Numbered from the stretch's first letter, positions 5,397 through 36,300 are shown. The stretch is 64,000 nucleotides of DNA from Escherichia coli (GCF_003019035.1 NZ_CP027447.1); one strand, 5' to 3'. Numbers and translations: made by a program. The notes: generated by a model from the letters alone, not told the origin.

Positions 5397-6961
5397 TCAG
5401 CAGCCTCCTGCTTTTTCTCCCTGGCGGCTTTAGCACTTTGCTTCTCCGCCGATGTTGTAAAATATTTCTTGCGCGCGGTCATGACGCGTTTCAAATCAAC
5501 GGGCTCATAAGGATTGGTGAATACCCGCTCGTCAAAATCCTGACGCGCGAATAACCACATTTCCTTTTGCCATTTGCTGAGTAATTCATCCGGCTCCTGA
5601 CCTTCTTCAATTTGACGCACTAACCTCAGGAAGCGATGCTGAGTTTTGTTCCAAAAGTCGATATCCACAAAACTGAAATCACCCCGTGCACCTTTTGGAT
5701 CGGAGAACCATGCTTCTTTCAATGCACTCCGTAACAGACTTAGAATCCGTGAAGCCGTTTGCGCAGCCAGCCGCAGCTTTGGTATCTGGCCTTCTTTTTT
5801 ATTGAGCAGCAGCGGGAAATGGTGTTCGTACCAACAGCGCGCTTTCATGTTGTCAAAATCATAACCAAATCCCCATAGGCCCACTTTTGCCTGTTTCAGA
5901 CTGCTGGCATTAAAGAGTTTCACCACCAGCGCGGGAAGTTCCGTATTGTTTTCTGATTTACCCGTTTCGATAAGGCCTAACCAGTCGCGCCAGATTAAAC
6001 CGCCCGGTTGTGGTTTAACGGAGTAAAACTCGCCACCCTCTTTAAGTGGTACACGGTAAGGCGTTAAGGGATGCTGCCACATGGCATAATTGGCACCATA
6101 ATTTTTGGTCGTCATCAGGCTCAGGAGCGCGTCGTTCTGCTCGTCGCAAATATCGCAGTTGCCGACTGTCGTGGTATTAAAATCAATACGTATACGCCGC
6201 GGCATTCCCCAGTACGCCTGGAGTTTATTGACCTGATCATGGGTTACCACCGCACCGGCCAGTTCGCTGGTACGCGTCGGGCCTAGCCAGGGGAAAATCA
6301 GATCGTCAAATTTTTTGGGTAGCGGTAAGTCGGCTTCATCCTGCGGCATCACGTTGAGCCACAGTTTGCGCCACAAGGGTGTTTGTTGATTGCCCTGATA
6401 TTCCTGTAATTCAATGAGAGTCGTCATCGGCCCACCGCCGCGTAAACCGGTGCGATAGCCTTTGCCGCCCGCGGGTGCATTCAACTGTAAAGAGAACAAG
6501 GCCAATGCTAAGCAATGGGGGCACAGATATTCCGTTACACCCCGCTTGATAAAATGGTCTTTATTAAACTTCGTCGTTTGAAAGCCGGGAATCTCAGGCA
6601 GTAGCGAAGCGACCGGAACTTTATCTCCCGTGAGCGCCTCAAAATCCTGCATAAATGAAGATGAATCAGGCCCAAACTGGAAAGCATGTTCTAAAGACAG
6701 CAATGCTTCTCGTAGCTTTTCAGCTTCCAGTCCGTCTTCCCAGATATCATCCCAACGACGATGATCTTTTGGCGCGAAGCTGGTTTGTAGTAGTCCCAGC
6801 AAAAACTGCCAGGCCGCACCTTGTAAATCTGCTCGCGGTGCGGCGATATCGACAACATTCTCATCAGCCAGATCGACTGATGCCAGCTTGCCTGTCGTTC
6901 CGTCTTTGAAACGAACAGGCAACCACGGGGTTGTCAGAAGTGAAAACGAGTTCATACGCAT
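5393..6961 (-). CDS. casA: CasA / Cse1 Cascade large subunit
   Basis: 522-aa ORF with a GLRGG motif (GKGYRTGLRGGGPMTT) as in Cse1; position between cas3 and casB. Confidence 0.82.
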   Translation of the reverse strand: MRMNSFSLLTTPWLPVRFKDGTTGKLASVDLADENVVDIAAPRADLQGAAWQFLLGLLQTSFAPKDHRRWDDIWEDGLEAEKLREALLSLEHAFQFGPDSSSFMQDFEALTGDKVPVASLLPEIPGFQTTKFNKDHFIKRGVTEYLCPHCLALALFSLQLNAPAGGKGYRTGLRGGGPMTTLIELQEYQGNQQTPLWRKLWLNVMPQDEADLPLPKKFDDLIFPWLGPTRTSELAGAVVTHDQVNKLQAYWGMPRRIRIDFNTTTVGNCDICDEQNDALLSLMTTKNYGANYAMWQHPLTPYRVPLKEGGEFYSVKPQPGGLIWRDWLGLIETGKSENNTELPALVVKLFNASSLKQAKVGLWGFGYDFDNMKARCWYEHHFPLLLNKKEGQIPKLRLAAQTASRILSLLRSALKEAWFSDPKGARGDFSFVDIDFWNKTQHRFLRLVRQIEEGQEPDELLSKWQKEMWLFARQDFDERVFTNPYEPVDLKRVMTARKKYFTTSAEKQSAKAAREKKQEAAE

Positions 6962-23366: not shown

Positions 23367-24644
23367 ATGCAACACAACTCATATCGCCGTTGGATAACCC
23401 TCGCGATAATTAGTTTTAGCGGCGGCGTTAGTTTCGACCTGGCTTATTTACGTTATATTTATCAAATTCCCATGGCGAAATTTATGGGATTCAGCAATAC
23501 CGAGATAGGTTTAATAATGAGTACCTTTGGTATTGCAGCTATTATTCTTTATGCGCCCAGTGGCGTTATTGCCGATAAATTCTCACATCGCAAAATGATT
23601 ACTTCCGCGATGATCATTACCGGATTACTGGGTCTGTTAATGGCAACTTATCCACCGCTGTGGGTAATGCTCTGTATTCAGGTTGCCTTTGCGATAACGA
23701 CGATTTTAATGCTGTGGTCGGTGTCGATTAAAGCCGCATCGTTGCTGGGCGATCATAGCGAGCAAGGGAAAATTATGGGCTGGATGGAAGGGCTGCGCGG
23801 CGTCGGTGTAATGTCGCTGGCGGTGTTTACCATGTGGGTCTTTTCTCGCTTTGCACCGGATGACAGCGCCAGCCTGAAAACGGTCATTATCATCTACAGT
23901 GTGGTCTACATTTTATTGGGGATTCTGTGCTGGTTTTTTGTTAGCGATAACAACAACCTGCGCAATACCAATAACAAAGAAAAACAGTCATTCCAGCTTA
24001 GCGACATCCTGGCCGTTTTGCGCATCAGCACCACCTGGTATTGCAGCATGGTGATTTTTGGTGTCTTCACCATCTACGCCATTCTGAGTTACTCCACCAA
24101 CTATCTCACCGAAATGTACGGCATGTCGCTGGTGGCGGCGAGCTACATGGGGATTGTGATCAACAAAATATTCCGCGCGCTGTGTGGTCCACTTGGCGGC
24201 ATTATCACCACCTACAGTAAAGTGAAATCCCCTACCCGCGTGATCCAAATCCTTTCCGTACTCGGCTTGCTGGCGTTAACTGCCCTGCTCGTCACGAACT
24301 CTAACCCGCAATCGGTCGCGATGGGGATTGGCCTGATTTTACTGCTGGGATTCACCTGTTACGCCTCACGCGGGCTGTACTGGGCCTGCCCTGGCGAAGC
24401 GAGAACACCGTCTTACATTATGGGCACCACGGTAGGTATTTGTTCGGTGATTGGATTCCTGCCGGATGTCTTCGTTTACCCGATTATCGGCTACTGGCAA
24501 GACACCCTGCCCGCTGCAGAAGCCTACCGCAATATGTGGCTGATGGGCATGGCGGCGCTTGCCATGGTGATCGTCTTTACCTTTTTGCTGTTCCAAAAAA
24601 TTCGTACTGCTGATAGCGCCCCTGCTATGGCTAGCAGCAAGTAA
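23367..24644 (+). CDS. yqcE: MFS transporter
   Basis: 425-aa multi-TM ORF divergent from ygcW. Confidence 0.85.
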   Translation: MQHNSYRRWITLAIISFSGGVSFDLAYLRYIYQIPMAKFMGFSNTEIGLIMSTFGIAAIILYAPSGVIADKFSHRKMITSAMIITGLLGLLMATYPPLWVMLCIQVAFAITTILMLWSVSIKAASLLGDHSEQGKIMGWMEGLRGVGVMSLAVFTMWVFSRFAPDDSASLKTVIIIYSVVYILLGILCWFFVSDNNNLRNTNNKEKQSFQLSDILAVLRISTTWYCSMVIFGVFTIYAILSYSTNYLTEMYGMSLVAASYMGIVINKIFRALCGPLGGIITTYSKVKSPTRVIQILSVLGLLALTALLVTNSNPQSVAMGIGLILLLGFTCYASRGLYWACPGEARTPSYIMGTTVGICSVIGFLPDVFVYPIIGYWQDTLPAAEAYRNMWLMGMAALAMVIVFTFLLFQKIRTADSAPAMASSK

Positions 24645-24670
24645 GTCCAGAAAATTACAGGAGAAAAATC

Positions 24671-26149
24671 ATGTCGAAAAAATACATCATAGGGATTGAT
24701 GGCGGAAGTCAGAGCACAAAAGTGGTGATGTATGATCTGGAAGGTAATGTGGTTTGCGAAGGCAAAGGCTTATTGCAGCCGATGCACACGCCAGATGCCG
24801 ATACCGCAGAACATCCTGACGACGATTTATGGGCATCATTATGTTTTGCCGGTCACGATTTGATGAGTCAGTTTGCCGGAAATAAAGAAGATATTGTCGG
24901 CATTGGTCTGGGATCCATCCGTTGCTGCCGTGCGTTATTGAAAGCCGATGGCACACCAGCTGCGCCGTTGATTAGCTGGCAGGATGCACGCGTTACACGC
25001 CCTTACGAACATACGAATCCTGACGTGGCATATGTCACCTCTTTTTCGGGTTATCTGACGCATCGCTTAACCGGCGAGTTTAAAGACAATATCGCCAACT
25101 ATTTTGGTCAGTGGCCGGTGGATTATAAGACCTGGGCATGGAGCGAAGATACCGCGGTAATGGAGAAGTTTAATATTCCCCGACAGATGCTTTTTGATGT
25201 GCAAATGCCGGGCACTGTTCTTGGGCATATCACTCGTCAAGCCGCGCTGGCGACACATTTCCCGGCTGGGCTGCCGGTTGTTTGTACCACCAGTGATAAA
25301 CCGGTAGAAGCTCTGGGAGCCGGATTACTGGATGATGAAACGGCGGTGATTTCTCTTGGCACCTACATCGCGCTGATGATGAACGGTAAAGCACTGCCGA
25401 AAGATCCGGTAGCGTACTGGCCGATTATGTCTTCTATTCCGCAAACCTTGCTGTATGAAGGTTACGGTATCCGCAAAGGCATGTGGACGGTGAGCTGGCT
25501 ACGCGACATGCTAGGCGAGTCGTTAATTCAGGATGCCAAAGCACAGGATCTTTCACCGGAAGATTTGCTCAACAAAAAAGCGTCTTGTGTGCCGCCTGGC
25601 TGTAATGGTCTGATGACGGTGCTGGACTGGCTGACCAATCCGTGGGAACCATACAAACGCGGGATTATGATCGGCTTTGATTCCAGCATGGATTACGCAT
25701 GGATATATCGTTCGATACTGGAAAGCGTGGCGCTGACGCTGAAGAACAATTACGACAATATGTGTAATGAAATGAATCACTTTGCAAAGCATGTGATCAT
25801 TACTGGCGGCGGTTCGAACAGCGATCTGTTTATGCAGATTTTTGCCGACGTGTTCAACCTTCCGGCACGCCGTAACGCCATTAATGGTTGTGCAAGTCTG
25901 GGGGCAGCGATCAATACGGCGGTAGGTCTGGGGCTATACCCGGATTACGCAACGGCTGTCGACAAAATGGTTCGCGTGAAAGATATCTTTATGCCTGTTG
26001 AGAGCAACGCCAAACGCTACGACGCGATGAATAAAGGCATTTTCAAAGACCTAACCAAACACACTGATGTGATCCTGAAAAAATCGTATGAAGTGATGCA
26101 TGGTGAGCTGGGGAATGAAGATTCGATCCAGAGCTGGTCGAATGCGTAA
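24671..26149 (+). CDS. ygcE: FGGY-family carbohydrate kinase
   Basis: 492-aa ORF MSKKYIIGIDGGSQSTKVVMYD... with FGGY N- and C-terminal ATPase signatures. Confidence 0.9.
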   Translation: MSKKYIIGIDGGSQSTKVVMYDLEGNVVCEGKGLLQPMHTPDADTAEHPDDDLWASLCFAGHDLMSQFAGNKEDIVGIGLGSIRCCRALLKADGTPAAPLISWQDARVTRPYEHTNPDVAYVTSFSGYLTHRLTGEFKDNIANYFGQWPVDYKTWAWSEDTAVMEKFNIPRQMLFDVQMPGTVLGHITRQAALATHFPAGLPVVCTTSDKPVEALGAGLLDDETAVISLGTYIALMMNGKALPKDPVAYWPIMSSIPQTLLYEGYGIRKGMWTVSWLRDMLGESLIQDAKAQDLSPEDLLNKKASCVPPGCNGLMTVLDWLTNPWEPYKRGIMIGFDSSMDYAWIYRSILESVALTLKNNYDNMCNEMNHFAKHVIITGGGSNSDLFMQIFADVFNLPARRNAINGCASLGAAINTAVGLGLYPDYATAVDKMVRVKDIFMPVESNAKRYDAMNKGIFKDLTKHTDVILKKSYEVMHGELGNEDSIQSWSNA

Positions 26150-26194
26150 GTGAGGAAGACCGGGCGGGAAACTGCCCGGCCTGAACATACCTGA

Positions 26195-26343
26195 ATGGTT
26201 ATCCCCGCTGACGCGGGGAACATAAGTTCGACAACTTAAAAAATGATAACAAGTCCGGTTTATCCCCGCTGATGCAGGGAACATAATAAAAACTTTAACT
26301 AGTTCGGTTTATCCCTGTTTTTACAAGGAATATTAACTACACT
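26195..26343 (-). CRISPR. Decayed orphan CRISPR remnant: 3 degenerate I-E repeats, 2 spacers
   Basis: Repeat-like units at 26195-26223, 26256-26284 (CGGTTTATCCCCGCTGATGCAGGGAACAT) and 26315-26343 (CGGTTTATCCCTGTTTTTACAAGGAATAT); spacers 32 and 30 nt. Confidence 0.7.
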
Positions 26344-26786
26344 CGATGTCTTTAGAATAAAAGACAATACGAATCGCACTTTATCAATTTTCACTTAAAG
26401 TATGAACTGGATATCTTTATTCATAAGAACTATTCATCAACAGCCTATAGAGGCGGTTATGTAAAACCACTCATTAGCCTCAAAACAAAGACAAATTTCC
26501 AGATTTATTACTTAATCAATGAATAACAAGCTTAAAAAATACACTGTTATTCTAAAGAAAAAATTAACAGGCATTAATTAATATTAAAAAAATAATAGAT
26601 TAAAATTTCTTAACGGTTTAAGGATTATACAAATAACACTTTGATTAAATTTGATTTTTTGTATCGATAATTGTGAACTTATCTGGCATGGAGAACTATT
26701 TTGAACATGAGGTGTTATGTGGATATGTTGCTTATTACAAGTACAGCTAATATAAAAACTTGAGAAAGAGATAACGGGTTATATGG

Positions 26787-27059
26787 TGGTTTATCCCCGC
26801 TGGTGCGGGGAACTCTTGGCATAGGCGCTATAGCGGCGCTCTGTGTCCGGTTTATCCCCGCTGGCACGGGGAACTCGTTGGTGCCGTTGTTGTAACCGTA
26901 GAAACCGACGGTTTATCCCCGCTGACGTGGGGAACTCGCAGGTCAACACGGGCGATAAACCCGGCTGACCGGTTTATCCCCGCTGACGTGGGGAACTCGA
27001 TAAGCAGATTGCAGAACTACAGGCGAAGGACGGTTTATCCCCGCTGACGTGGGGAACTC
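26787..27059 (-). CRISPR. Orphan type I-E CRISPR array: 5 repeats, 4 spacers
   Basis: 29-nt repeats at 26787, 26848, 26909, 26970 and 27031 (61-nt period), consensus CGGTTTATCCCCGCTGRCRYGGGGAACTC; ends in ...AACTC rather than the ...AACAC of the cas-proximal array. Confidence 0.95.
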
Positions 27060-27200
27060 TCTAAACATAACCTATTATTAATTAATGATTTTTTAAGCCA
27101 GTCACAATCTACCAACTTTACAGGATCACACAAACAACACATCCATTATGTTAAAGAACACTTAATCCATTGATTAAAAAAGTAAATATTTAAAATAACT
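27060..27200 (-). promoter_or_regulatory. Leader of the second CRISPR array
   Basis: AT-rich; CTAAACATA... start and CACAATCTACCAAC at 27104-27117 parallel the first leader at the same distance from repeat 1. Confidence 0.55.
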
Positions 27201-27397
27201 CTATACCCACTAAAATCTACCAAACTTTACCGCAATAATTTTCACTCCAACGAAAAATTAACGCCACAGAATTTGTAGAGAATGATAATGATTAGCCCAG
27301 AATGGGCAAAATGGAGTTTTTTCAGAGGCGACAAAGAATATAAATAAGTGGAAGTCTTTACAGGTTCCACCCATTTATAACGCTTATAAATGTTTAA

Positions 27398-28069
27398 TCA
27401 GGCAATATTCAAATATTTATGTGTCTGCATCGACAAACGCCAGTTGCGCGCTATGCAGGTATCGATACATAAACGCGTAGCATCTTCCTTCTGGCTAATT
27501 GGCTGAAGTGCAATGACTCGCGGTTTATCATCGGTCAGCGTCGCAAGCAATTCATCCAGTGCTTCGATATCACGTACGCGTCCCACTGGATGCTTGATTT
27601 CGTTGGCTCGCTCCAGTGCCTGTGACAACACTTCATAGCCGCCGCGCATATTCAGCTTTGGCGATACGGTAACCCAGGTATTCGGTGTGCAGCGTACTTC
27701 ATGAGTACCACTGGTTTCGATCTGGCAGCTAAAACCGTTCTTTTCGAGCTGGTCAGTCAGTGGCAGCAAATCATGAATGCAAGGCTCACCACCCGTAATC
27801 ACCACATGCCGTGCGGTGTATCCCTGGCGACCAATGACAGCCAGCAAATCTTCACTGCTCGCAGCCCCCCACTTATCACTCTCTTTGGTCTTCGCCAGAA
27901 TGCTGAAAAGGGAAACTTCCCGATCCTCAAGCTTTTCCCAGGTGTGTTTGGTGTCGCACCAGGCACAGCCAACCGGGCATCCCTGTAAACGAATAAAAAT
28001 GGCGGGGACGCCGGTAAAGTAACCCTCACCTTGCAGGGTCTGGAACATCTCGTTAATCGGGTACTGCAT
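27398..28069 (-). CDS. queE: 7-carboxy-7-deazaguanine synthase (radical SAM)
   Basis: 223-aa ORF MQYPINEMFQTLQGEGYFTGVPAIFIRLQGCPVGCAWCDTKHTW (CxxxCxxC radical-SAM motif variant typical of QueE). Confidence 0.95.
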   Translation of the reverse strand: MQYPINEMFQTLQGEGYFTGVPAIFIRLQGCPVGCAWCDTKHTWEKLEDREVSLFSILAKTKESDKWGAASSEDLLAVIGRQGYTARHVVITGGEPCIHDLLPLTDQLEKNGFSCQIETSGTHEVRCTPNTWVTVSPKLNMRGGYEVLSQALERANEIKHPVGRVRDIEALDELLATLTDDKPRVIALQPISQKEDATRLCIDTCIARNWRLSMQTHKYLNIA

Positions 28070-28241
28070 AGCATTCTCTGTGAAGTGGATAATTGTTAAT
28101 TATTGCAGATCCTGCCACAACAATCATGTCTTATTAACATTCTGTTACAGGCAGGTTTAAGGCAAAAAGTGGATGAGATCATAAAGAATAAAATGAAGCG
28201 GCGTATTATGTTTTAAGGAATTAATTAAAAGGGACATAGAC

Positions 28242-28844
28242 ATGCTCAGGATATTCATCGTAATTATATTTATTGTCAATTTATCAGGCTGTGGATATAA
28301 CGATATTCAAACCTATGATGAGCAGGTTAACGCCTCCTGGTCTGAGGTATTGAATCAATATCAACGTCGCGCCGATCTTATTCCTAATCTTGTCGCCAGT
28401 ATTAAAGGTTATTCCAGCCATGAACAAGAGGTACTGGAAGCCGTAACATTGGCACGTAGCCAGGCTAATCGCGCCAGTAGCGATCTTCAGCAAGCTCCGG
28501 GAGATGCGCAAAAATTACAAGCCTGGCAACAAGCCCAGGCGCAGGTGTCTCGCACTCTCGGTCAGTTAACGATAATTAGTGAACGTTACCCTGAGTTAAA
28601 AGCTCAGGAACTCTATCAAAACTTAATGGTACAGCTCGAAGGAAGTGAAAATAGAATTGCCGTTGCGCGAGGAAGATATATTAAAGCCATTGAACAATAT
28701 AATGTCACTATCCGCAAATTCCCCGCTGTATTAACCGCAAAGGTCATGGATTACACACCAAAGAAAAATTATTTGCCGGATGATGTCACCGCAGTAAGTA
28801 AAGCCCCAACAATAGATTTTAGCCAGAATGCTAATGCGCATTAA
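28242..28844 (+). CDS. LemA-family lipoprotein
   Basis: 200-aa ORF with signal peptide and lipobox (LSGC), then a LemA-like helical region (NASWSEVLNQYQRRADLIPNLV). Confidence 0.85.
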   Translation: MLRIFIVIIFIVNLSGCGYNDIQTYDEQVNASWSEVLNQYQRRADLIPNLVASIKGYSSHEQEVLEAVTLARSQANRASSDLQQAPGDAQKLQAWQQAQAQVSRTLGQLTIISERYPELKAQELYQNLMVQLEGSENRIAVARGRYIKAIEQYNVTIRKFPAVLTAKVMDYTPKKNYLPDDVTAVSKAPTIDFSQNANAH

Positions 28845-28857
28845 GCGGGGAAGTTCT

Positions 28858-29751
28858 ATGCGAAATTTTATCTTCCTTATGGCTTTCTTCTGTTCATCTG
28901 TGTTTGCCACACAAATTCCAGTACCTGAATCCCCCAAGTATGTGAATGACTTAACCGGCACATTAACAAACAGCGAAGTAAACACCCTGACCAACCAGAT
29001 TAAAGCCCTGACGCAAAAAAACCACGCACAGTTGGTCGTGTTAGTGGTTGATACAACAGGCGATGAAACCATCGAGCAGTACGCAACGCGGGTATTCGAT
29101 AGCTGGAAACCGGGTGATAAAGACCGCGATGATGGCGTTCTACTGTTAGTCGCCTGGCAGGATCATACCGTGCGTATTGAAATCGGTTACGGACTGGAAG
29201 GTATTATTACGGATGCACAGTCCGGGAAAATTATTCGCAACAGTATTATTCCGGCATTTAAAAAAGGCGACCTGGCTGGTGGTTTACAAAAGGGGATCAA
29301 CGATATTGAAAGTCGCCTGACGGGGAATAATTCAGCAACGATAACACCGACCGATCACCCTTTGCCCTTTAGCGGTTGGTGGGCTTTGTTAGTCTGGGCG
29401 ATAATACTGACGTTTATTTCTGCCAGAGGATATATCAAAACGCTGGGACTGATTTGCTTCGCAGCTATTGTACTGGCCTTTGTTTTACCTATAGCAGGTT
29501 TCAGCGGAAGCTGGGGAGTGCTCGCAACATTACTCTGCTTCGCCACACCGTTCCTGGCTGTCGCCATCGCTTTTACTCCCTTCGGCAAAAAGGTTCGGGA
29601 TTCGATGCGTAATACCAACCAGCCATCACGCCATACAAGAAGTAATTCTTCCTCCCACTATTCGTCATCGTCATCCTCTTCATTCGACAATGACAATTTC
29701 CGCGGTGGTGGCGGTTCATCTGGTGGCGGTGGCGCTTCCGGACGCTGGTAA
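28858..29751 (+). CDS. TPM-domain membrane protein (YgcG-like), paralog 1
   Basis: Frame of ORF 28828-29751; start at MRNFIFLMAFF (signal peptide) after GGGGAAG; TPM core ([24 protein letters not shown]), 2-3 TM helices, Ser-rich linker and tail [15 protein letters not shown]. Confidence 0.85.
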   Translation: MRNFIFLMAFFCSSVFATQIPVPESPKYVNDLTGTLTNSEVNTLTNQIKALTQKNHAQLVVLVVDTTGDETIEQYATRVFDSWKPGDKDRDDGVLLLVAWQDHTVRIEIGYGLEGIITDAQSGKIIRNSIIPAFKKGDLAGGLQKGINDIESRLTGNNSATITPTDHPLPFSGWWALLVWAIILTFISARGYIKTLGLICFAAIVLAFVLPIAGFSGSWGVLATLLCFATPFLAVAIAFTPFGKKVRDSMRNTNQPSRHTRSNSSSHYSSSSSSSFDNDNFRGGGGSSGGGGASGRW

Positions 29752-29765
29752 CAAAAGGAATTGAT

Positions 29766-30914
29766 ATGCGTATTTTTCTCTTACTTCTGATGCTATGCGG
29801 TTTTCAGGTATTCGCTGAACAATTGCCTTCAGTAACTGACTTAACCGGGACATTAACGACAGAAGAACAAACTGCTTTAAATCAACAATTACAGACTCTC
29901 GAGCAGCAAAACCACTTCCAGGTGGCCGTGTTGGTTACGCCGACTACAGGGGGCAAAAACATTAAACTTGCAGCCTCGCAGAGATACGGGTTATATCACT
30001 GGAAACCCGTTGGAGAGAAGCGATATGGCGAAGGTATCTTAATTCTCGTCGTATGGCCGGAAGGGCTGGCGTCAATGAAGATTGGACATGGACTGGAACA
30101 GATGTTGCCGCCAGAACAAGCTGCGCAAATTGTTCGTTACCATATGCAGCCAGAATTCGAAAAAAGCAATCTCTTTGCTGGATTAACGGGCGGAATTGAA
30201 AGCATCGCACAGTTTACCCATATCAAAGCGAACCTTAGCCCTTTGGATGCTTTAGCCAATCATCTGTTTGCTAATCCACAACGTTCGCTGCCATGTCTTG
30301 CCTGGACACTGCTGATGATCGTTGCCATCGTTGTCCTCTGGCGATTTACCAGCCGTCCTGGGCCTGGCATATGGATGATATCGATGATTACCCCTATGGT
30401 CTGGTTTTTCTTCTTTCAGGATGATGTCATCATTCGGCGGGTGTCGATCGTTTGTTTTAGTTTATTGTTAGCAACAACCTGCTGGCAGCGTCTCGCGGTA
30501 GTTTTTAATATGTGCCGCGCATTTCCTATGATGCTGGCCCCCAAAAATAAAAACACTAAAGTGAAAAAACAAAAGAAGACCCAGCAATTTCCTGAATCAG
30601 GACGAAATTCATTGTTTGTCGTGATGCTGATAATTGTTGTGGGATGGTGCCTGGTGTTCGCCAGTAATAAAGATATTGCATTCATCTCAACAATTATTGG
30701 GTTAATTGATCATTTTATCGGCCCAATAACCATTGCTGGCATCGTTCTGCTGATCATTGTGGCCAAATTTACTGGCAATCTTAAACTGGGGTCAGGAGAA
30801 AAAAGCAACAGGAAAACGGGGAATCGTAATGCTCATTCTCGCTCTTCGTCGAAAAATTCTTTCCGCGGTGGCGGCGGTTCTTCAGGAGGCGGCGGTTCAT
30901 CCGACCGTTGGTGA
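29766..30914 (+). CDS. TPM-domain membrane protein, paralog 2 (extended multi-TM insert)
   Basis: 382-aa ORF: signal peptide, TPM core, about 5 hydrophobic segments, lysine-rich linker, tail [17 protein letters not shown]. Confidence 0.85.
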
Positions 30915-30919
30915 TCGTT

Positions 30920-31792
30920 ATGCGTATAATCCTTTTTCTACTCACTTTATGGTGCCTTCCTGTGCTTGCCCAGCAAATTGCTGTGCCGGAGCTGCGCCAA
31001 CAGGTGACCGATATTACTGGTACCTTAAGCACGTCTGAACAACAATCACTAACACAACAGCTGCAGGATATTACACAAAAAACACGGGCACAGGTCGCTG
31101 TATTAATAGTGCCATCCACCGGAGACGATTCTATTGAACAATATGCTACAAGAGTTTTTGACAATTGGCGTTTAGGAGATGCCAAACGTAATGATGGGAT
31201 ACTGATCATTGTTGCCTGGTCGGATCGTACTGTCCGCATCCAGGTAGGTTATGGGCTGGAAGAAAAGGTAACCGATGCTCTGGCTGGCAATATCATCCGT
31301 AGCATCATGATACCCGCCTTTAAAAAACAAAAATTAGCTAAGGGATTAGAATTAGCTATAATCGCTTTGAATAACCAACTCACTTCACAACACCAATATT
31401 CGTCTAATCCTTCAGAAAGTGAATCAGCGTCTTCCAGTGATCATTACTACTTTGCTATTTTTTGGGTATTTGCAGTGATGTTCTTCCCTTTCTGGTTTTT
31501 TCATCAAGGCAATAATTTTTGTCGGGCATTTAAAAGCAGTGTTTGTATTTCAACAGTCTATCTTATAGATTTATTCCTGTTCTCCGATCAAACTTTTTCC
31601 ATTGCTGTATTTTCCTTCTTTTTTACTTTCACCACCATTATGGTCTTTACCTGTTTATGTGTACTTCAGAAAAAAGCATCTGGTAGAAGTTATCATTCAG
31701 ACAACAGCGGTTCCGGTGGCGGCTCAAGTGGCGGCGGATTTAGCGGCGGGGGCGGTTCTTCTGGCGGTGGCGGCGCGTCCGGTCGCTGGTAA
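30920..31792 (+). CDS. TPM-domain membrane protein (YgcG-like), paralog 3
   Basis: Frame of ORF 30908-31792 (track start is a TTG at 30908; first ATG at 30920); TPM core close to paralog 1, tail ...[15 protein letters not shown]. Confidence 0.85.
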
Positions 31793-31801
31793 CTCAACCA
31801 T

Positions 31802-31832
31802 AAAAAATGCCAGCCCGAAGGCTGGCATTTTT
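31802..31832. terminator. Bidirectional rho-independent terminator between TPM paralog 3 and eno
   Basis: AAAAAATGCCAGCC-CGAA-GGCTGGCATTTTT: perfect 8-bp stem flanked by A-run and T-run, between two convergent genes. Confidence 0.75.
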
Positions 31833-31851
31833 AAATCAGATAAAGTCAGAC

Positions 31852-33165
<1,314 letters not shown>

Positions 33166-33236
33166 TCACTAGTTAAACTGAAACTCCAGACAAACAACGC
33201 GTACCCAGGGTACGCGTTGCCGTTCTAACTTTTTTC

Positions 33237-34889
<1,653 letters not shown>

Positions 34890-35101
34890 TTAGGTTGAAA
34901 AGACGATGGAATAACCAGGACGGGAAAGCAGTATACCCGAACATGACCTGTGCCACAAACTTTCATTATCCCTCCTCTTCGCCAGCGCACTATTGAAATC
35001 AGGAGTGAGAAAATAGCCCCTTTGGGGTAAATGTTTTTGACGCAAATCAAGCGCTTGTCATTTAAAAAATGACACAAATCGCGCTTGACCGCGTAATTCC
35101 C

Positions 35102-35893
35102 TTAGAGATCAATTTCCTGCCGTTTTACCTGTTGCCAGACTTCTTCCATTGTTTCGAGGTCAACACCTGTCATTTCCAGTCCACGCGCGGCAACAATACG
35201 CTCCACTTCGCGAAAACGACGCTCGAATTTTTCGTTCGCTTTTTGCAATGCAATTTCCGCTTTTGTCCCTAAATGACGAGCCAGATTGACCGTGGCAAAC
35301 AGCAGGTCGCCCATTTCCTCCTCCAGTTTAGCCTGGTCGATAACAGCCTGCCGTGCCTCGTACATCACCTCGTCGATCTCTTCGTAGACTTTATCGACTA
35401 CCGGACCAAGCGTCGTCCAGTCGAAACCAACGTTGGCGCAACGTTTCTGGATTTTTTGCGCACGCATTAAAGCCGGTAAACTACGAGGAATATCGTCCAG
35501 CGCCGAATGCTGCGCTTTCTGCGCGCGCTCTTCGGTTTTGATTTGCTCCCAACGGGCAAGCACTTCACTACTATTTTCGGCAGAACTGTCAGCAAAAACA
35601 TGCGGATGGCGACGCTCTAATTTATCGCTGATCGCGGCGCAAATATCATTAAAGTCAAAGCGCCCTTCTTCCTGGGCCATTTGTGCGTAAAACACCACCT
35701 GGAACAGCAGATCGCCCAGTTCACCGCGCAGATCGTCAAAATCTTCACGGGCGATGGCGTCCAGCACCTCGTAGGTTTCTTCAAGGGTGTAAGGCGCAAT
35801 GGTGGCAAATGTCTGCTCTTTATCCCACGGGCAGCCGTTTTCCGGATCGCGCAGGCGCTGCATAATAGTGAGCAAACGGTCGATTTGATTCAT
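35102..35893 (-). CDS. mazG: Nucleoside triphosphate pyrophosphohydrolase MazG
   Basis: 263-aa ORF with tandem MazG domains (EETYEVLDAI..., EEMGDLLF). Confidence 0.95.
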   Translation of the reverse strand: MNQIDRLLTIMQRLRDPENGCPWDKEQTFATIAPYTLEETYEVLDAIAREDFDDLRGELGDLLFQVVFYAQMAQEEGRFDFNDICAAISDKLERRHPHVFADSSAENSSEVLARWEQIKTEERAQKAQHSALDDIPRSLPALMRAQKIQKRCANVGFDWTTLGPVVDKVYEEIDEVMYEARQAVIDQAKLEEEMGDLLFATVNLARHLGTKAEIALQKANEKFERRFREVERIVAARGLEMTGVDLETMEEVWQQVKRQEIDL

Positions 35894-35964
35894 TAGAATG
35901 TCCTGAAAATTGCGGGTCTGTCAGGTGGAAACCTGTGACCAGAATAGAAGTGAGTTAGTAACAC

Positions 35965-36300
35965 CTACCCAATCAGCACGTTAATTTTGGCTTTAATGAG
36001 TTGTAATTCCTCTGGGGCAACTGTTCCTTTCTTCGTTGCTCCTCTTGCCCGCCAGGCGATACTTTTTACCTGATCAGCTAACGCTACGCCATCACGTTCC
36101 TGACCGGATAGAACAACTTCGAACGGATATCCTTTTGATTGCGTTGTACAAGGAACACACAGACACATACCTGTTTTGTTGTTGTACATGAACGGACTCA
36201 GGACAACAGCCGGACGATGTCCGGCTTGCTCGCTACCTTTTGTCGGGTCAAAATCAACCCAAATCAGATCGCCCGTATCGGGTACGTATCGGCTTACCAT
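35965..36300 (-). CDS. mazF: MazF mRNA interferase toxin
   Basis: 111-aa [39 protein letters not shown]... matches MazF. Confidence 0.96.
   Translation of the reverse strand: MVSRYVPDTGDLIWVDFDPTKGSEQAGHRPAVVLSPFMYNNKTGMCLCVPCTTQSKGYPFEVVLSGQERDGVALADQVKSIAWRARGATKKGTVAPEELQLIKAKINVLIG

Follow-up and report, generated by a model that had tools for sequence, protein, structure and literature searches.

A lemA and triple-TPM gene cluster between queE and eno of Escherichia coli, an Escherichia variant of the widespread LemA-TPM module

We analysed a 64,000-nucleotide stretch of Escherichia coli DNA (GCF_003019035.1, NZ_CP027447.1; hereafter the window), in which a lemA gene and three genes for TPM-domain proteins, here called TPM1, TPM2 and TPM3, lie in tandem between queE and eno. 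A first-pass annotation made from the sequence alone had placed these four genes at 28242-31792, and Pfam searches confirm the family and position of each. Our comparisons indicate that the cluster is an Escherichia-specific variant of a widespread, annotated LemA-TPM module. Among bacterial envelope proteins without an assigned role, LemA (COG1704) and the YgcG-type TPM proteins (COG1512) are two of the more widespread. E. coli offers a natural experiment on them, since closely related strains differ in having the whole cluster, a form with two genes, one with swapped cassettes or the mere remnant found in K-12. The genes and features of the locus are as follows (aa, amino acids).

27398-28069, minus strand: queE, flanking gene
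28070-28241, no strand: queE-lemA divergent intergenic region, presumed promoter or regulatory region
28242-28844, plus strand: lemA, 200-aa LemA-family lipoprotein (Pfam LemA PF04011, 1.2e-48)
28281-28292, plus strand: lipobox of LemA, LSG/C, codons 14-17, read from the sequence
28858-29751, plus strand: TPM1, 297 aa (Pfam TPM PF04536, 2.4e-41)
29698-29748, plus strand: C-terminal tail motif of TPM1, last 17 codons
29766-30914, plus strand: TPM2, 382 aa (Pfam TPM PF04536, 3.1e-21)
29832-30212, plus strand: degenerate TPM domain of TPM2, residues 23-149
30276-30770, plus strand: predicted 5-helix membrane module of TPM2, residues 171-335 (AlphaFold2)
30534-30593, plus strand: Lys-rich loop within the membrane module, residues 257-276
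30861-30911, plus strand: C-terminal tail motif of TPM2, last 17 codons
30920-31792, plus strand: TPM3 (type 'a'), 290 aa, ortholog of K-12 YgcG (Pfam TPM PF04536, 1.1e-37)
31739-31789, plus strand: C-terminal tail motif of TPM3, last 17 codons
31802-31832, no strand: bidirectional intrinsic-terminator-like hairpin common to TPM3 and the convergent eno, read from the sequence
31852-33150, minus strand: eno, flanking gene

The four genes are separated by 13, 14 and 5 nucleotides (nt), and a Shine-Dalgarno-like motif precedes every start. On the plus strand, a consensus terminator scan places a single site within them, a weak 5-bp site at 30434-30447; its two remaining plus-strand terminator-like sites are downstream of TPM3. 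The hairpin between TPM3 and eno, which the scan did not pick up, consists of an A-run, the stem-loop TGCCAGCC-cgaa-GGCTGGCA and a T-run. Spacing, ribosome-binding sites and terminator position together predict an operon-like cluster, in agreement with the near-abutting layout noticed in the first-pass annotation. The 5.75-kb queE-eno stretch is 100% identical to that of E. coli SCU-301, for which RefSeq annotates the same four genes with the same starts. The G+C content at third codon positions (GC3) is 0.38-0.48 in the four genes versus 0.52-0.57 in the flanking core genes. An Rfam scan of 24000-36000 gave no matches, and Tandem Repeats Finder reported no repeats in 26000-32000.

LemA is predicted to be a lipoprotein with a periplasmic helical bundle. 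Its Pfam match covers model positions 1-149 of 149, it matches PDB entry 2ETD, a helical structure labelled 'lemA protein', at 1.1e-32, and an AlphaFold2 model of the mature protein consists of long helices with a predicted local distance difference test (pLDDT) score of 75-89. The lipoprotein call made at first reading is upheld by the N-terminus, MLRIFIVIIFIVNLSG followed by Cys, a lipoprotein signal peptide with the lipobox L-S-G-C17. The Cys-Gly-Tyr-Asn junction at this lipobox is kept in LemA homologs of Klebsiella, Leptospira, Methylocaldum and Bordetella. MamQ, which acts in magnetosome membrane formation (PMC4902198), is the sole protein of the LemA family for which a process is known. 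Like LemA here, MamQ is anchored in the membrane at its N-terminus and has its LemA domain on the non-cytoplasmic side; its LemA domain is described as lumen-facing, which is equivalent to the periplasm (PMC3905215). Unlike LemA here, MamQ has a transmembrane-helix anchor, a stretch specific to magnetotactic bacteria, and magnetosome partners rather than TPM proteins. The match of LemA to the NCBIfam MamQ model (NF040966; 91.4 bits, 5e-26) lies below the cutoff of 250 bits, a score that marks it as a family relative of MamQ and not a MamQ. Comparison of LemA with phage collections gives a match to phrog_1383 (3.5e-22), which is labelled 'virion structural protein'. By tblastn, 40 of 50,697 phage records contain a LemA homolog, and most of these belong to phages of Enterococcus, Listeria and Acinetobacter.

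The signal peptide, TPM core and hydrophobic segments that had been ascribed to all three TPM proteins were found in each. The signal peptides are Sec-type with AXA-like cleavage sites (VFA/T in TPM1, VFA/E in TPM2, VLA/Q in TPM3), the Pfam TPM matches span essentially the whole model, and each protein continues through hydrophobic helices, a basic juxtamembrane stretch and a Ser-rich spacer to a Gly-rich tail. All three thus have the layout of the YgcG-type long TPM proteins (signal peptide, TPM domain, anchor and a Gly-rich C-terminus ending in Trp). By Kyte-Doolittle hydropathy, there are about three hydrophobic segments in TPM1 and in TPM3. The TPM domain of TPM1 (residues 29-151), which is predicted to be periplasmic, matches PDB entries 7TBR, 5ANP (BA41) and 2KW7 by sequence. 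The fold of TPM1 and TPM3 was assigned by sequence, and the TPM fold was modelled for TPM2, the most divergent copy. In 66 LemA-linked long TPM proteins, 50 positions reach 80% conservation or more; of these, TPM1 retains 40, TPM3 37 and TPM2 26. The family-invariant acidic residues D31, D92, D102, E114 and D119 are present in both TPM1 and TPM3.

The last 17 residues of the three proteins comprise F(R/S), a Gly-rich stretch and (A/S)S(G/D)RW, TPM2 ending ...SSDRW and TPM3 ending ASGRW. The first-pass annotation had described these tails as conserved even at the nucleotide level. This is correct as far as it goes, with 75-80% identity between paralogs over the 51 nt (38-41/51); a repeat search likewise groups the tails as a 51-nt direct-repeat family, at 75-84% identity. 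Where codons specify the same residue, however, third positions agree in just 5/13 to 7/14, so the likeness of the DNA is owed to the protein motif. On the same third-position counts, gene conversion among the tails was considered and rejected. Nor is the tail peculiar to these paralogs: a Gly-rich ...GGGGxSGRW end is present in 96 of 120 TPM homologs, and the Gly-rich, Trp-ending tail is thus a C-terminal hallmark of the YgcG-type TPM family at large. The tails are predicted to be cytoplasmic, both from an odd number of helices and by the positive-inside rule. The description of the three genes as triplicated does not hold in the sense of a recent duplication. The paralogs are pairwise 35-40% identical in protein sequence and the locus is also occupied in Klebsiella; we therefore take them to have diverged anciently and not to be a recent tandem triplication.

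TPM2 stands apart. The extra helices and Lys-rich linker noticed at first reading correspond, in the AlphaFold2 model, to five helices (171-194, 200-216, 221-256, 277-299 and 304-335) and to the loop at 257-276, which is disordered, as is the tail. In its TPM domain, the near-invariant D92, D102, R106 and D119 (TPM1 numbering) are all replaced. The domain still folds in the model (pLDDT 82-92), and Foldseek returns 5ANP, 2KW7, 7TBR, 8C7I and 3PTJ at probability 1.00. Full-length TPM2 homologs are limited to Escherichia. The membrane module has 12 matches among 1.84 billion representative proteins; 11 of them, whole or fragmentary, are Escherichia- or Klebsiella-like, and the twelfth (P0129), a tandem-repeat protein, is spurious. 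At the queE locus of Klebsiella spallanzanii, which carries lemA, TPM1 and a TPM2 ortholog without TPM3, and in a related assembly, the entire TPM domain has been cleanly lost from within the TPM2 ortholog (positions 6001-6858 of comparison locus L005 and 5379-6191 of L006). Signal peptide, 5-helix module and Lys-rich loop persist in the ortholog, which ends ...GGGGASGRW. By comparison of sequences, the TPM2 substitutions and the Klebsiella domain loss show that the conserved TPM residues can be dispensable in at least one copy. A membrane module and a Gly-Trp tail that persist without a working TPM domain direct attention to the tail and the membrane part.

To place the cluster among its relatives, species-representative genomes were scanned with a LemA alignment. 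At least 594 LemA-encoding stretches were confirmed, and the neighbourhood counts below rest on the 66 loci, from different species, that had enough flanking sequence.

54 of 66 loci: one long (YgcG-type) and one short cytoplasmic TPM gene adjoining lemA
7 of 66 loci: one long TPM gene alone adjoining lemA
3 of 66 loci: no TPM gene adjoining lemA
2 of 66 loci, both Escherichia: three long TPM genes, no short one

A long TPM gene with a Gly...Trp tail lies beside lemA in 62 of the 66 loci, and in at least 58 lemA is followed directly by a long-type TPM gene on the same strand, as it is here across a 13-nt gap. On this gene order, LemA and long-type TPM genes are shown to be near-obligate neighbours. 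LemA with several TPM genes is the usual state in Proteobacteria and Leptospira; Leptospira wolffii, for example, has LemA-long-short-long and a Bordetella has LemA-long-long. The cluster is therefore less singular than the first-pass annotation proposed in having several TPM genes, and unusual in having three long ones and no short one. The Escherichia oddity, judged from these arrangements, would be that the short member was lost and the long type expanded and diverged. A search of the locus found no short (about 165-aa) cytoplasmic TPM gene here or in E. albertii.

In the canonical LemA/long TPM/short TPM operon, of which a Methylocaldum locus is an example, a LemA with a CGYN lipobox heads the operon as it does here. 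The next gene likewise encodes a signal-peptide-bearing, membrane-anchored TPM protein ending ...GGGGASGxW, with tight same-strand spacing. The cluster in the window differs in its three long and no short TPM genes, and in that one copy is degenerate and carries a lineage-restricted 5-helix module. The short TPM proteins elsewhere (for example at L011 4443-4961 and L012 5840-6349, and in most of loci L024-L093) have no signal peptide and end ...(N/D)ELPD(R/E)P.... This acidic, Pro-containing C-terminus, the second conserved one in the module, might pair with the cytoplasmic Gly-Trp tail of a long TPM protein. In the Methylocaldum-like contig (L012 1-8000), LemA, long TPM and short TPM are followed by a HerA_C-domain gene, and the module, which abuts genes for TniQ, TniB, a transposase and a resolvase, may be cargo of a transposon. 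A pair of multi-helix YgcG-type TPM genes with Gly-Trp tails, accompanied by a small lipoprotein gene, lies without LemA in the flagellar export operon of Pseudomonas nitritireducens, between flhB and flhA (L010 3666-6974).

Within E. coli the queE-eno locus is polymorphic. We matched segments of it by megablast to 5,426 complete E. coli genomes, every match being chromosomal, with the following counts.

lemA: 1,454 genomes (27%)
TPM2: 1,104 genomes (20%)
TPM3 membrane half of the window's type, 3a: 4,288 genomes
alternative TPM3 membrane half, 3b (O157:H7, E. albertii): 783 genomes
120-aa membrane open reading frame (ORF) substituting for TPM2 and TPM3: 340 genomes

At least five haplotypes exist, recognised from inspected example genomes.

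lemA-TPM1-TPM2-TPM3a: the window, MS10860, DS566
lemA-TPM1-TPM2-TPM3b: O157:H7, E. albertii
lemA-TPM1-TPM3b-TPM3a, without TPM2: SCPM-O-B-8794 (L014 6587-9287)
lemA-TPM1-120-aa ORF: PSJ-22
yqcG-ygcG: K-12 and about 73% of genomes

The four-gene arrangement is thus not an invariant, already characterised state of all E. coli: forms with TPM2, of the window and O157 types together, make up about 20% of the 5,426 genomes. The window's own haplotype would account for about 320 genomes (about 6%), a figure obtained by subtraction and not by enumeration. Every sampled carrier of the TPM2 form has intact reading frames apart from TPM1 in O157:H7 F6294 (L007 1961-2868), which is cut off by a TTA-to-TGA change at codon 225; among other strains, ygcG of DH10B has a nonsense mutation and yqcG of MS1657 is frameshifted. 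RefSeq, through its annotation pipeline PGAP, calls TPM1 'partial, missing C-terminus' in MS10860, DS566 and PSJ-22. The frame in these genomes is intact through ...GGGGASGRW, and the label is therefore probably an annotation artefact. In SCPM-O-B-8794, TPM3b and TPM3a have a near-identical signal peptide and TPM-domain start and unrelated membrane halves, a pattern suggestive of cassette exchange through recombination within the conserved 5' regions and the tails. The 120-aa ORF (L003 3402-3764, PSJ-22 type) is hydrophobic, unrelated to TPM2 or TPM3, and at least 99% identical in 339 of its 340 carriers.

The ratio of nonsynonymous to synonymous divergence (dN/dS) against other alleles is 0.05-0.18 for lemA, 0.13-0.20 for TPM1, 0.22-0.51 for TPM2 and 0.25-0.34 for TPM3; the flanking genes give 0.01-0.06 (queE) and about 0 (eno). 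The four genes thus appear to be under purifying but relaxed selection. For some pairs of alleles, synonymous divergence (dS) is about 0.9-1.0 in the cluster versus 0.04-0.22 in the flanks in the same E. coli comparisons, from which we conclude that the haplotypes are old.

K-12 carries just yqcG and ygcG between queE and eno (b2778 region), without lemA, TPM1 or TPM2, and the contrast that the first-pass annotation drew with K-12 is borne out. The site is the same, and TPM3 and K-12 YgcG are 79% identical in protein sequence, with 96.7% DNA identity from window position 31097 onward. Homology between K-12 and the window stops 11 codons into lemA and restarts within TPM3. The yqcG gene (L002 1811-1951, against window 28209-28330) is a 46-codon ORF whose start lies 33 nt upstream of that of lemA and which, in the alignment, runs through a diverged lemA 5' end; the window's counterpart of the yqcG ATG meets a stop at once (atg ttt taa). 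K-12 yqcG is thus a 5' remnant of lemA, the first gene of a lost operon. The segment L002 1877-2141, which comprises the 3' end of yqcG and the first approximately 60 codons of ygcG, has no nucleotide match to any allele that we fetched, and the N-terminus of K-12 YgcG encoded by these codons is about 40% identical to every paralog here. A simple deletion between paralogs was rejected as the origin of the K-12 state, since this segment is unmatched. The K-12 pair is better described, on this alignment, as a reduced mosaic with an unsampled donor, and not as an ancestral state.

Because yqcG is a lemA remnant, regulation of YqcG probably reports on the promoter of the ancestral operon. The queE-lemA region is about 92% identical to the queE-yqcG region of K-12, which binds phosphorylated PhoP in gel shift (PMC4974570) and contains a sigma-S peak in chromatin immunoprecipitation sequencing (PMC4447067). 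A PhoP-box-like direct repeat, TGTTACaggcaGGTTTA, is present in the window at 28143-28159 with 2 mismatches. In K-12 this region drives yqcG, whose product RefSeq names 'cell envelope stress response protein'. Work by Hemm et al. in 2010 is said to agree with this label. In Flavobacterium, an sppA mutant with membrane stress induces lemA and a TPM gene (PMC13236525).

How might these proteins act? We propose, with confidence that is evenly balanced, that periplasmic LemA and the three YgcG-type TPM proteins form an Escherichia variant of the module that serves as a non-enzymatic accessory or scaffold on membrane complexes. LemA and the TPM domains would act jointly at the periplasmic face of the inner membrane, and the lipobox of LemA and the Sec signal peptides of all three TPM proteins support a shared compartment. 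Their assembly would be a non-enzymatic accessory, scaffold or chaperone for membrane-embedded complexes, the Gly-Trp tails would project into the cytoplasm, and the cluster would be expressed probably from the queE-divergent region and possibly under envelope stress. The term 'envelope system', used in the first-pass annotation, is a reasonable label in this sense, and we use it as a presumption.

Structural relatives are consistent with such a role. With the TPM2 model, Foldseek also matches Psb32 (8C7I), TLP18.3 (3PTJ) and subunits of the mycobacterial CIII2CIV2 respiratory supercomplex (8OVC_V, 8HCR_J, 6HWH_O and 6ADQ_J); in these proteins, as predicted here, the TPM fold is extracytoplasmic and anchored by a transmembrane segment, and theirs is bound to a large membrane complex. 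Scores against the NCBIfam Psb32 model (NF047379) were 34.5 bits for TPM1 and 36.9 for TPM3, under a cutoff of 160 bits, and TPM2 gave no match. E. coli has no photosystem. The TPM fold is also shared by BA41 and BA42 of Bizionia argentinensis, PG_0361 of Porphyromonas gingivalis and Rhom172_1776. Solved bacterial TPM domains match TPM1 by sequence at 2e-22 to 2e-19, and the TPM2 model at Foldseek template-modelling scores of 0.69-0.83 (target-normalised). These four proteins are single domains that were studied alone, and their reported ATPase/ADPase or phosphatase activities are not known to serve a physiological role. Comparative genomics has led to the proposal of a chaperone-like assembly role for TPM (PMC11237479), and a phosphatase assignment has been called unlikely (bioRxiv 10.1101/2025.01.14.632903). 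The YdjH system of Bacillus subtilis (pspA-ydjGHI) is a further comparison: it centres on PspA, and the description that we consulted names no LemA-family member. Here, in contrast, LemA is present and the locus has no PspA-family gene.

Several observations weigh against the proposed scaffold role. Our full-text literature search found no functional study of this cluster or of any LemA-TPM module. Contact between the two families was modelled with AlphaFold2 as a fusion of mature LemA to the periplasmic domain of TPM1, using a 35-row paired alignment of adjacent gene pairs. Both halves folded well and took no confident mutual orientation (predicted template-modelling score 0.53), and because this score is expected for unoriented domains, the model lends no computational support to direct contact between LemA and the TPM domain. 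LemA carries Gly at +2 after the Cys that is predicted to be lipidated, for which the +2 rule predicts sorting to the outer membrane. An outer-membrane LemA would alter the picture of a system at the inner-membrane face, and LemA and TPM proteins could then span the periplasm. The cytoplasmic placement of the tails rests on the positive-inside rule and helix counts, and a crude family-wide helix count (by hydrophobicity, and noisy) gives 4 helices in 26 proteins, 3 in 22 and 5 in 13. As for expression, the PhoP-box match is at chance level (20 hits in the window versus 15.6 expected), and a sequence scan upstream of lemA found no strong sigma-70 consensus. Finally, 73% of E. coli genomes are without lemA, TPM1 and TPM2, and nonsense codons occur in TPM1 (O157:H7) and ygcG (DH10B). 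Any role must therefore be conditional, and the cluster is apparently dispensable in most strains.

This last pattern raises the question of whether the cluster is a decaying relic without current function, kept by drift and by linkage to queE and eno. Loss from about 73% of genomes, the nonsense alleles of TPM1 and ygcG, the frameshifted yqcG of MS1657, selection that is relaxed relative to the flanks, and the degenerate TPM domain of TPM2 would all fit decay. Yet dN/dS stays at 0.05-0.34 for lemA, TPM1 and TPM3, also across the divergence of E. coli and E. albertii, frames are intact in the sampled TPM2-form carriers save for TPM1 of O157:H7, and ribosome-binding sites and tail motif are intact; we regard a relic as unlikely. 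An enzymatic reading takes the TPM domains as periplasmic acid phosphatases or nucleotidases/ATPases acting on a phosphorylated envelope or periplasmic substrate, with LemA as cofactor. The Pfam family is named TPM_phosphatase, BA41 is credited with ATPase/ADPase activity by the title of its report as cited in PMC11237479, TLP18.3 is likewise a near structure, and TPM1 and TPM3 retain the acidic residues D31, D92, D102, E114 and D119. Comparative genomics speaks against the phosphatase assignment (bioRxiv 10.1101/2025.01.14.632903), however, and catalysis is hard to reconcile with a TPM2 that has lost D92, D102, R106 and D119 and is still under purifying selection (dN/dS 0.22-0.51), or with a Klebsiella ortholog without any TPM domain. 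Relatives with a characterised structure, moreover, serve photosystem II and a respiratory supercomplex as assembly factors or as subunits without catalytic activity. Enzymatic function of the cluster is, in our estimate, distinctly improbable.

The MamQ match (5e-26) might alternatively point to membrane remodelling, with a MamQ-like LemA shaping or invaginating the membrane, or promoting vesicles, and polytopic TPM proteins assisting. We consider this similarly doubtful: 91 bits is far under the MamQ cutoff of 250, MamQ works with magnetosome-specific partners, mamB, mamM, mamE, mamO and mamL being individually essential too (PMC4902198), and the locus has no dynamin-, PspA- or ESCRT-like gene. 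Variation at the locus could also be read as the mark of a conflict or immunity cassette, whose membrane modules are selected by phages, colicins or contact-dependent toxins, hence the many old haplotypes. The five or more haplotypes, with presence/absence and cassette-like swaps of membrane halves (TPM3a versus TPM3b, TPM2, the 120-aa gene), suit this idea, as do the allelic dS of 0.9-1.0 against 0.04-0.22 in the flanks, the low GC3 (0.38-0.48 against 0.52-0.57), CRISPR arrays and mazEF within a few kb, and LemA homologs in a few phage records. These records are only 40 of 50,697, however; dN/dS is below 1 throughout; and a search of the four proteins against PADLOC-DB v2 gave no match at E <= 0.01, the single one (0.032) being to a CARF_TM model over 75 LemA residues. 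The cluster has no toxin, nuclease or ATPase gene, its neighbours are core genes in synteny conserved as far as Klebsiella, and the module looks like a housekeeping operon in hundreds of species. A conflict cassette is thus very unlikely. Just as long a shot, in our view, is the related idea that queE-eno is a cassette-like hotspot where balancing or diversifying selection maintains the variety of the membrane modules. If so, the membrane halves of the TPM proteins, and perhaps the invariant F-x-GGGG-xx-GGGG-A-S-G-x-W end, would be recognition surfaces. What recognises them could be an invader (a phage during DNA entry, or a colicin or contact-dependent inhibition toxin during import) or a cytoplasmic factor that reads the Gly-Trp tail. 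On this view, the LemA-TPM module would sense or guard passage across the membrane and would not be a passive assembly factor.

These findings do not overturn current views, and the cluster is not a new kind of system. The natural E. coli haplotypes, the origin of yqcG from lemA and the TPM-less Klebsiella ortholog together make the question of LemA and TPM function experimentally approachable.

Two small CRISPR arrays lie between ygcE and queE, at 26195-26330 (2-3 degenerate repeats) and 26787-27067 (5 repeats). The repeats are type I-E-like, CGGTTTATCCCCGCTG.CG.GGGGAAC, with a 61-nt period. RefSeq marks one of the two in SCU-301 and also marks arrays at the matching position in K-12 and PSJ-22.

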